A stretch of DNA of 64,000 nucleotides, from the sequence record MN648445. One strand, given 5' to 3'. Of this stretch, positions 48,165 through 51,973 are shown piece by piece; within the stretch, counting starts at the first letter, position 1, and each line of letters starts with the position of its first letter. Under the pieces are notes generated by a model. That model had not been told where the DNA came from and searched no databases. It saw only the letters and a program-made list of their open reading frames with translations. The stretch is from Escherichia phage FP43. A program made the translations under genes and the position numbers.

Positions 48165-48193
48165 GTCAAATTACCATGTAATAAATATAGTTA

Positions 48194-48201
48194 TATTTAT
48201 A
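48194..48201 (-). promoter_or_regulatory. late promoter for uvsW
   Basis: Minus-strand TATAAATA about 30 nt upstream of the uvsW ATG. Confidence 0.55.
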
Positions 48202-48214
48202 ATGAGGAAATACT

Positions 48215-48892: not shown

Positions 48893-50311
48893 ATGGCTTT
48901 TACAGTTAATATAAATCCTAAAACACCTACTGGAGTTATAGGACAGACCCAGCAGTTTACTGCCACACCTAGTGGTCAGGCTGAAGGTGGAACTATTACA
49001 TATGCTTGGACTTTGGATGGTGTTCCGCAAGATGGAGCTGAAGCAACTTTTAGTTATGTACTAAAAGGACCTGCCGGTCAAAAGACTATTAAAGTAGTTG
49101 CAACAAATACAGTTCCAGAAGCTGAAGCTGAAACAGCAGAAACTACTGCAACTATCACAGTTAAAAATAAAACTCAGACAACTACTCTGGCTATAACTCC
49201 TGATAGCCCTGCTGCTGGAGTAATCGGAACAGCTGTTAAATTTACTGCGGCTTTAGCTTCTCAACCGTCAGGCGCATCTGCTACGTATCAATGGCACGTT
49301 GACGGTTCTCCTGTGAGCGAAGCAACTTCTGCTACATTCAATTACACTCCTACCACAAGCGGAGTTAAAAAAATTAAATGTGTAGCCCAAGTGACGGCAA
49401 CAGACTATGACACAAAAGAAGTTACTTCTAATGAAGTATCACTGACTGTTAATAAAAAGACACAGACAACTACCTTGGCAGTAACTCCTGATAGTCCTTC
49501 AGCTGGAGTAATTGGAACCCCAGTTCAATTTACTGCTGCCTTAGCTTCTCAACCGGCTGGAGCGTCTGCTACGTATCAGTGGTATGTAGATGATTCACAA
49601 GTTGGTGGAGAAACTAACTCTACATTTAATTATACTCCAACTACAAGTGGAGTAAAAAGAATTAAATGCGTAGCCCAAGTAACTGCTGAAAATTACAATG
49701 AAAAGGAAGTTACTTCTAATGAAGTATCATTAACGGTTAATAAGAAGTCAATGAATCCACAGGTTACATTGACTCCTCCTTCTATTAACGTTCAGCAAGA
49801 TGCTTCAGCTACATTTACCGCTAATGTCACTGATGCTCCAGAAGAAGCGCAAATTGAATATTCATGGAAGAAAGATTCTTCTCCTGTAGAAGGGTCAACT
49901 AATGTATATACCGTTGATACTTCATCTGTTGGAAGTCAAACTATTGAAGTGACTGCCATCGTTACTGCAGATGACTATGATAGCAAAACTATTACAGCAG
50001 AAGGTCAAGTTCAAGTGACTGATAAAGTTGCTCCGGAACCAGAAGGTGAATTACCTTATGTTCATCCTCTTCCACATCGTACTTCAGCTTACATCTGGTG
50101 CGGTTGGTGGGTTATGGATGAAATCCAAAAAATGACTGAAGAAGGTAAAGATTGGAAAATTGACGATCCAGATAGTAAATACTACCTGCATCGTTATACG
50201 CTTCAGAAGATGATGAAAGACTATCCGGAAGTTGATGTTCAAGAATCACGTAATGGATACGTCATCAATAAAACTGCTTTAGAAACTGGTATCATCTATA
50301 CATATCCATAA
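48893..50311 (+). CDS. hoc: Hoc outer capsid protein with four Ig-like domains
   Basis: 472 aa; four ~95-aa Ig-like repeats plus a C-terminal domain. Confidence 0.8.
   Translation: MAFTVNINPKTPTGVIGQTQQFTATPSGQAEGGTITYAWTLDGVPQDGAEATFSYVLKGPAGQKTIKVVATNTVPEAEAETAETTATITVKNKTQTTTLAITPDSPAAGVIGTAVKFTAALASQPSGASATYQWHVDGSPVSEATSATFNYTPTTSGVKKIKCVAQVTATDYDTKEVTSNEVSLTVNKKTQTTTLAVTPDSPSAGVIGTPVQFTAALASQPAGASATYQWYVDDSQVGGETNSTFNYTPTTSGVKRIKCVAQVTAENYNEKEVTSNEVSLTVNKKSMNPQVTLTPPSINVQQDASATFTANVTDAPEEAQIEYSWKKDSSPVEGSTNVYTVDTSSVGSQTIEVTAIVTADDYDSKTITAEGQVQVTDKVAPEPEGELPYVHPLPHRTSAYIWCGWWVMDEIQKMTEEGKDWKIDDPDSKYYLHRYTLQKMMKDYPEVDVQESRNGYVINKTALETGIIYTYP
49163..49738 (+). repeat. tandem duplication of ~288 bp within hoc (two adjacent Ig-like domain units)
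   Basis: Units about 49163-49450 and 49451-49738 align over long stretches (roughly 80 percent identity by eye); the encoded 96-aa domains are near-identical. Confidence 0.7.
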
Positions 50312-50317
50312 TCGTAA

Positions 50318-50340
50318 GGGGCTTCGGCCCCTTTCTTCGT
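50318..50340 (+). terminator. rho-independent terminator after hoc
   Basis: GGGGC-TTCG-GCCCC + TTTCTTCGTTTTT. Confidence 0.75.
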
Positions 50341-50412
50341 TTTTAAAGCATACAAAACACAACTTGAGATTGATGTATATAATGGCACAAACCAAATAAT
50401 ACGGGATCGATT

Positions 50413-50974: not shown

Positions 50975-51973
50975 ATGTTTAAGAAATACAGCAGTCTTGA
51001 AAACCACTACAACTCTAAGTTTATTGAAAAACTCTACACTAATGGTTTGACTACTGGTGTTTGGGTAGCACGTGAGAAAATCCACGGGACCAACTTCTCG
51101 TTAATAATTGAACGTGACAATGTCACATGCGCCAAGCGCACAGGCCCTATTCTTCCAGCAGAAGATTTTTATGGTTATGAAATCGTACTCAAGAAGTATG
51201 ATAAAGCTATTAAAGCCGTTCAGGAATTCATGTACACAGCTCGAGCCGTATCATATCAAGTATTCGGTGAATTCGCTGGTGGTGGAATCCAGAAAGGTGT
51301 TGACTACGGTGAAAAAGATTTTTATGTGTTCGATATCCTTATCAATACAGAAAGTGGTGATAATACGTATTTGACCGATTACGAAATGCAAGATTTCTGT
51401 AATGAATTCGGTTTTAAAATGGCACCAATGCTTGGTCGTGGAACATTTGATTCTCTTATCATGATTCCAAATGACCTTGATTCCGTCTTAGCCGCTTATA
51501 ACGCTACGGCATCGGAAGACCTTGTCGAAGCAAATAATTGCGTATTTGATGCTAATGTTATTGGTGATAATACTGCAGAAGGTTATGTTCTGAAGCCTTG
51601 TTTCCCTAAATGGCTGCCAAACGGTACTCGTGTAGCGATTAAGTGCAAGAACTCTAAATTCAGTGAAAAGAAAAAGTCTGATAAGCCTATTAAAACTCAG
51701 GTTCAATTAACTGAAATTGACAAAAACTTGCTTGATGTTCTAGCTTGTTATGTTACACTAAATCGTGTTAACAATGTGATTTCTAAGATTGGGACAGTAA
51801 CGCCAAAAGATTTCGGTAAAGTGACTGGATTGACTGTTAAAGATATTCTAGAAGAAACTTCTCGTGAAGGTATTGTATTAACATCATCCGATGACCCGAG
51901 TCTTGTTAAGAAAGAATTAATTAGAATGGTGCAAGATGTTCTGCGTCCTGCATGGATTGAATTAGTATCATAA
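50975..51973 (+). CDS. rnlB: RNA ligase 2
   Basis: 332 aa (T4 334); KIHGTN adenylation motif. Confidence 0.85.

Follow-up and report, generated by a model that had tools for sequence, protein, structure and literature searches.

Tandem Ig-like domain units in the Hoc capsid decoration protein of Escherichia phage FP43

The window analysed here is a stretch of 64,000 nt of Escherichia phage FP43 (sequence record MN648445), a Mosigvirus-type T-even phage. Its closest match is Escherichia phage Mizar, with 98.6% nucleotide identity over 20 kb and 99.1% over hoc, a gene annotated in Mizar as 'capsid decoration protein'. An earlier note on this DNA had assigned to hoc an ORF of 472 aa, which is indeed present on the + strand with an ATG start codon (Table 1). 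Its product hits PHROG 1149 'Hoc-like head decoration' (E 1e-139) and, in a phmmer search against PDB, the Hoc protein of T4 (5vf3_Z, E 2.5e-214; T4 Hoc of entry 8t1x is also aligned). The gene order, established by setting the ORF map of the window against the annotated loci of Mizar, p000v, SHSML-52-1, moskry and T4, is T4-like: uvsW, inh, hoc, two small ORFs resembling 24.3/24.2, rnlB and gene 24. Similarity and synteny together uphold the assignment. The protein also matches Pfam PKD (PF00801) with 45.2 bits for a cut-off of 23.5, as well as Ig_2 and PKD_3/4, and its computed pI of 4.65 makes it acidic; a pI of about 4-5 is found in Hoc homologs (PMC10385173). A ribosome-binding site is annotated in the Mizar record at the position equivalent to the AAGGA that precedes the ATG in the window.

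Table 1. Features of the hoc locus in the window (positions in the 64,000-nt stretch).
Feature	Position	Strand	Basis
Shine-Dalgarno AAGGA, 6 nt 5' of hoc ATG, overlapping inh stop codon	48882..48886	+	sequence read
hoc CDS, 472 aa, head outer capsid decoration protein	48893..50311	+	ATG ORF; PHROG, Pfam, PDB, synteny
Ig-like domain 1 (D1), aa 1-88, equivalent to T4 Hoc domain 1	48893..49156	+	unit HMM aa 4-77, E 1e-9; AlphaFold2 beta-sandwich, pLDDT 85-93
Unit A of the tandem repeat (aa 89-184): Ig-like domain of first-copy ('alpha') type, extra relative to T4	49157..49444	+	
Unit B of the tandem repeat (aa 185-280): Ig-like domain of later-copy ('beta') type, corresponding to T4 Hoc domain 2	49445..49732	+	
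Fourth Ig-like domain (D3), aa 281-376, domain 3 equivalent	49733..50020	+	unit HMM, Ig_3 / I-set, AlphaFold2
C-terminal capsid-binding domain (CTD), aa 377-472, alpha/beta, non-Ig	50021..50308	+	near identity to T4 Hoc 281-376
Strong, GC-rich intrinsic-terminator-like hairpin AAGGGGC-TTCG-GCCCCTT followed by T-run, 5 nt past hoc stop	50316..50345	+	

Several observations concern the surroundings of the gene. uvsW and inh are immediate neighbours in the window (48165-48214), with no seg-type gene between them; in T4 (GT7, locus L003, 1144-1761) the homing endonuclease gene segE is found upstream of inh and hoc. Over the whole window there are 20 occurrences of the T4 late-promoter motif TATAAATA, for 7.2 expected. 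One of them, at 48194-48201 on the - strand, is situated just upstream of uvsW. From uvsW to hoc the + strand has no exact TATAAATA; a sequence matching 7 of its 8 positions, aATAAATA, is present on that strand upstream of inh at about 48181-48188. Downstream, rnlB (RNA ligase 2, 50975-51973) is 999 nt long, as in moskry, and 1008 nt long in Mizar, p000v and SHSML-52-1, so that its length differs slightly among relatives that are otherwise about 98% identical.

A profile HMM built from the two tandem units matches the protein four times, at aa 4-77, 89-184, 185-280 and 281-370. The last of these matches (E 1.7e-9) coincides with hits to Ig_3 and I-set at aa 289-373 and with a pLDDT of about 88-94 in the AlphaFold2 model. 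The model, built on an alignment of 32 sequences, displays four beta-sandwiches with pLDDT of at least 90 over most of aa 1-376, and the top PDB matches given by Foldseek are four-Ig fragments of Dscam1 and ICAM-5. The prediction of four Ig-like domains in the earlier note is thus borne out. It had also described the outer Ig-like domains as more divergent than the central pair, and D1 and D3 are 37-41% identical to the tandem units. The carboxyl terminus is matched by PHROG 21694 and 14282 (aa 390-472), the former with E 1.4e-39 on aa 408-472. The shallow alignment gave a low-confidence model of this domain, which was left out of the argument for capsid binding; the assignment rests on sequence identity to T4 Hoc, in which residues 281-376 form the capsid-binding domain (PMC10385173).

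The repeat search identified units A and B as a head-to-tail direct repeat of 288 nt per copy with 78% identity. Tandem Repeats Finder (TRF) reported independently 2.0 copies of period 288 at 49160-49747. The earlier note had placed the units at 49163-49450 and 49451-49738, which is the same repeat displaced by 6 nt, a difference that the arbitrary phase of tandem arrays allows. The two copies align without gaps and in frame and share 224 of 288 bases; this agrees with the claim that they are clearly alignable in DNA. They were also said to be near-identical in protein, a description that does not suit the 76 of 96 residues (79%) that they share. The 64 base differences fall on codon positions 1, 2 and 3 in the numbers 15, 8 and 41, and the longest identical run in register is 24 nt. 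Identity between adjacent 288-nt segments of the ORF is 0.78; in 500 codon shuffles it averaged 0.35 and peaked at 0.417, so that the internal repeat seen when hoc is compared to itself stands above every shuffle. Equal length, one domain per copy and similarity beyond chance are what is found in an in-frame tandem duplication of a domain; 78% nucleotide identity, 79% amino acid identity and a dS of 1.04 are not those of a recent or near-identical one.

T4 Hoc is 376 aa long, exactly 96 aa shorter than Hoc of the window. The comparison of lengths and the attribution of the extra length to an internal duplication therefore both stand: the protein is longer because the 288-nt segment coding for the second Ig/PKD-like domain is doubled, head to tail and in frame, and one such unit accounts for the 96 aa. 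The phmmer alignment pairs residues 1-113 of T4 Hoc with residues 1-113 of the window protein and residues 93-376 with 189-472. Unit B has diverged little from the single unit of T4 (dS 0.21, 90% nucleotide identity), whereas unit A is as distant from the T4 domain-2 unit as it is from B (dS 1.04). On this comparison of units, the domain that is extra relative to T4 is copy A, and T4 domain 2 corresponds to copy B.

The divergence between the copies gives an indication of their age. Units A and B have a dS of 1.04, a dN of 0.118 and a dN/dS of 0.11; the corresponding copies have a dS of 1.07 in moskry and of 0.81 in an IMG/VR locus (L008). D1, D3 and CTD, compared between the window and T4 as orthologs, have a dS of 0.30-0.47. 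Since the latter values are less than half the dS of about 1.0 that separates A from B, the split of the two units predates the divergence of Tequatrovirus and Mosigvirus at the hoc locus. Judging from these rates, the duplication is old and did not originate in this phage, and purifying selection acts on both copies. Among the 472-aa alleles variation is highest in unit A, with a dS of 0.57-0.67 between orthologous first copies.

Hoc homologs of 376, 472 and 568 aa, which occur in T-even phages closely related to each other, hold one, two and three units, respectively. Among the best 120 clusters of a large protein collection, 81 are 376-379 aa long, 30 are 468-472 aa long and 9 are 567-570 aa long, again with one, two and three units. 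Several of the 472-aa clusters have 58-167 member sequences that come from independent assemblies (NCBI, ENA, Logan). At the DNA level a 140-nt probe over the unit-unit junction matched 616 phage records, of which 60 evenly spaced ones were classified: 24 (about 40%) have a contiguous unit-unit junction and thus at least two units, 29 are single-unit (T4, T2 and RB32 among them), 2 are ambiguous and 5 are partial matches. This census of copy number covers the sampled records and the best-listed protein clusters, a subset of all records; a scan of IMG/VR gave 21 loci, too few for a census of DNA. The 1419-bp hoc gene recurs in numerous genomes of independent assembly, among them Mizar, G53, slur02/04, PST and wV7, and the GenBank record of moskry (MN850651) annotates a repeat_region within hoc. 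Extrapolating from the sampled records and the clusters, the four-Ig allele is common and already sequenced, and hundreds of T-even phages share the duplication. Divided or doubled hoc annotations are also met, such as 'PKD domain protein (x2)' over a span of 1474 nt in G29, 'Hoc part 1' in FriedrichMiescher and 'split head outer capsid protein' in PG7, which suggests frameshifts or insertions in several lineages.

Variation in the number of Ig domains of Hoc has been published (Fokine 2023), with 1 to 10 Ig-like domains among homologs (PMC10385173). Only general statements of this kind on domain number, and no explicit account of a four-Ig T-even Hoc or of its duplication, were found in the searchable literature. 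What is added here is mildly new: an explicit polymorphism of one, two and three units, the distinction between first-copy and later-copy units, and single units of hybrid type, for which the searchable literature yielded no description.

First-copy and later-copy units are distinct types that are kept apart across genes with two and three units. A segment-wise nearest-pool analysis was used to type units. Strict position-diagnostic A/B residues were tried for this purpose and dropped, as only 4 such sites exist and the units are highly mosaic. The single units (n = 82) include 17 that are purely of the first-copy type, 29 purely of the later-copy type, 30 hybrids that pass from first-copy to later-copy sequence and 3 that pass in the opposite direction. 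An example is the single unit of TH12, a phage whose hoc flanks are 98% identical to those of the window: it is 100% identical to unit A of the window over nt 1-213 and continues with a tail 92% identical to the second unit of moskry. phiEC1, p000v and SHSML-52-1, which share about 98% identity with the window across 20 kb, carry one beta-type unit each and a divergent D1. Relatives with flanks about 98% identical differ therefore in unit number, with two units in Mizar and one in TH12, phiEC1 and p000v. Within hoc, the same three phages phiEC1, p000v and SHSML-52-1 share 97-99% identity with the window over D3 and CTD and only 80-84% over domain 1, a contrast that points to a putative intragenic recombination breakpoint and to hypervariable distal Ig domains.

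The mosaic and hybrid patterns fit homologous recombination. Recombination in register between copies, and between the genomes of co-infecting phages, could expand, collapse and shuffle the array. The patterns do not give the direction, gain or loss, of single events. The asymmetry between the two kinds of hybrids was considered as a means to decide between gain and loss and was rejected, because ordinary exchange between genomes with one and two units yields the same asymmetry. Recombination in T4 needs roughly 50 bp of homology. As identical runs between A and B do not exceed 24 nt, spontaneous collapse of the array should be infrequent.

Taken together, we consider it highly probable that the ORF is hoc of a Mosigvirus-type T-even phage, that its product is a capsid-surface fibre, presumably monomeric, of composition Ig1-Ig2a-Ig2b-Ig3 followed by the capsid-binding CTD, and that the doubled domain is an old module, variable in copy number and shuffled by recombination. 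Two accounts that would deprive the array of this age were weighed against it. Assemblers are known to err at tandem repeats, and the second unit could have been produced by mis-expansion of a single one. Copies made in this way would be near-identical, while A and B differ at 64 of 288 positions, mostly synonymously and with the frame kept; many independent assemblies contain the same 1419-bp gene, and clusters of 472-aa proteins reach 167 members. An artefact is accordingly given next to no credence. The second account, a recent duplication specific to the FP43 lineage, finds an argument in the variable copy number of the nearest relatives (two in Mizar; one in TH12, phiEC1 and p000v), which is better explained by exchange or collapse of units that had already diverged. 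The dS of about 1.0 between A and B, more than twice the orthologous divergence of the window and T4, and the occurrence of the same alpha-beta arrangement in Tequatrovirus and Mosigvirus genomes and in three-unit genes make such a recent event very improbable. That the copies are divergent and yet under purifying selection excludes, for practical purposes, both accounts.

The route by which the old array arose is a different matter, on which two further proposals bear. The array could have been built by an out-of-register crossover that stacked diverged alpha and beta alleles of domain 2 from co-infecting phages. Unit A is indeed as far from every beta or T4-type unit (dS about 1.0) as from its own neighbour B, the alpha type is the sole unit in some 376-aa genes (the 17 of 82 single units mentioned above), and the linker TV(K/N)(N/K)K, present at the D1-unit, unit-unit and unit-D3 junctions, offers short homology for shifts of register. 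Pure alpha single units could equally come from collapse, and genes with two and three units nearly always have alpha before beta; this suggests one origin, which fits stacking of alleles as well as duplication. We hold allele stacking to be possible, though less likely than not. A four-Ig form ancestral in T-even phages, from which the three-Ig form of T4 type derived by deletion between repeats, receives from us a similarly reserved judgement. At hoc, units A and B separated before Tequatrovirus and Mosigvirus did, and many single units are alpha-to-beta hybrids with differing switch points, as collapse in register predicts; plain exchange between one-unit and two-unit genes makes hybrids as well. 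Distant Hoc lineages are mostly three-Ig, among them the Klebsiella/Enterobacter clade of 373-377 aa, whose four-Ig members carry a different and independent duplication. The three Ig domains of RB49 Hoc (PMC10385173) also count against four-Ig ancestry.

Returning to the preferred reading of an old module shuffled by recombination, it can be extended to a more ambitious hypothesis, which we put forward tentatively and with less than even confidence. The domain-2 array could be a cassette system driven by recombination, in which one to three copies and alpha/beta/gamma mosaics would be exchanged among co-infecting Tequatrovirus and Mosigvirus phages. It would provide rapid variation in the length of the capsid fibre and in its adhesive specificity, while strong synonymous divergence between the units would prevent their collapse under the very active recombination of T4 type.

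T4 Hoc is a fibre of 180 Å composed of four domains (PMC10385173), and attachment to mucin glycans and bacterial surfaces is mediated by the Ig-like domains of Hoc (PMC9271167, PMC11853027, PMC10385173). By analogy we infer that the extra Ig domain would lengthen the fibre of the window Hoc by roughly 40-45 Å, and that the doubling of the unit would provide a further copy of a kind of domain implicated in adherence to mucin, to glycans and to the bacterial surface. A longer fibre with altered adhesion is plausible. In phage PNJ-9, domain 2 of Hoc binds MUC2 via S183/L184/T185, at the end of the domain (PMC11853027). Both units A and B of the window Hoc end with the motif EVSLTVNKK; the phage may thus display twice a putative MUC2-binding site of PNJ-9 type. 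Hoc mediates the adherence of T-even phages to mucus and serves as a scaffold for T4 phage display and vaccines. Proteins of the T4 Hoc family sit on the mature capsid as single monomers, each at the centre of a gp23 hexamer. Natural alleles with three, four and five Ig domains show how far the fibre can be extended, and they are ready-made variants of length and valency. For the window the practical value lies in a correct annotation of the gene, which codes for a four-Ig Hoc and is no error, and current understanding is left unchanged.

The protein finds its place among known Hoc proteins as follows. T4 Hoc (376 aa; PDB 5vf3, 8t1x) is the product of the same gene at the same genomic position, shares the acidity and the string of Ig/PKD-like domains, and aligns end to end in D1, D3 and CTD; it lacks unit A, the 96-aa Ig-like domain that stands in the window Hoc between D1 and the equivalent of T4 domain 2. 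The 472-aa proteins of Mizar (PV714129), moskry (MN850651), slur02/04, wV7 and Yersinia phage PST have an identical architecture with the same 288-nt tandem unit and differ from the window Hoc only in allelic sequence. Proteins of 568-570 aa, like those of Escherichia phages UGKSEcP1 and UGKSEcP2, have the same D1, D3, CTD and unit family, with three units instead of two, the third being often of a further 'LVDGETT' subtype. Hoc of Klebsiella phage Marfa (MN044033; 471 aa) has also reached four Ig-like domains by internal tandem duplication. In that case the duplication is independent: its unit is 282 nt long and starts from about aa 187, the copies (2054-2626 of locus L013) are 76% identical, and the lineage is about 48% identical to the window Hoc, with many relatives in Klebsiella and Enterobacter phages that are exactly one unit shorter. 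Other members of the family differ from the window Hoc in domain count, namely Hoc of PNJ-9, described with two Ig-like domains and a C-terminal domain and without domain 3 (PMC11853027), and Hoc of Serratia phage Muldoon with 10 Ig-like domains (PMC10385173), in keeping with a natural variation of Ig number to which the four domains of the FP43 protein belong.
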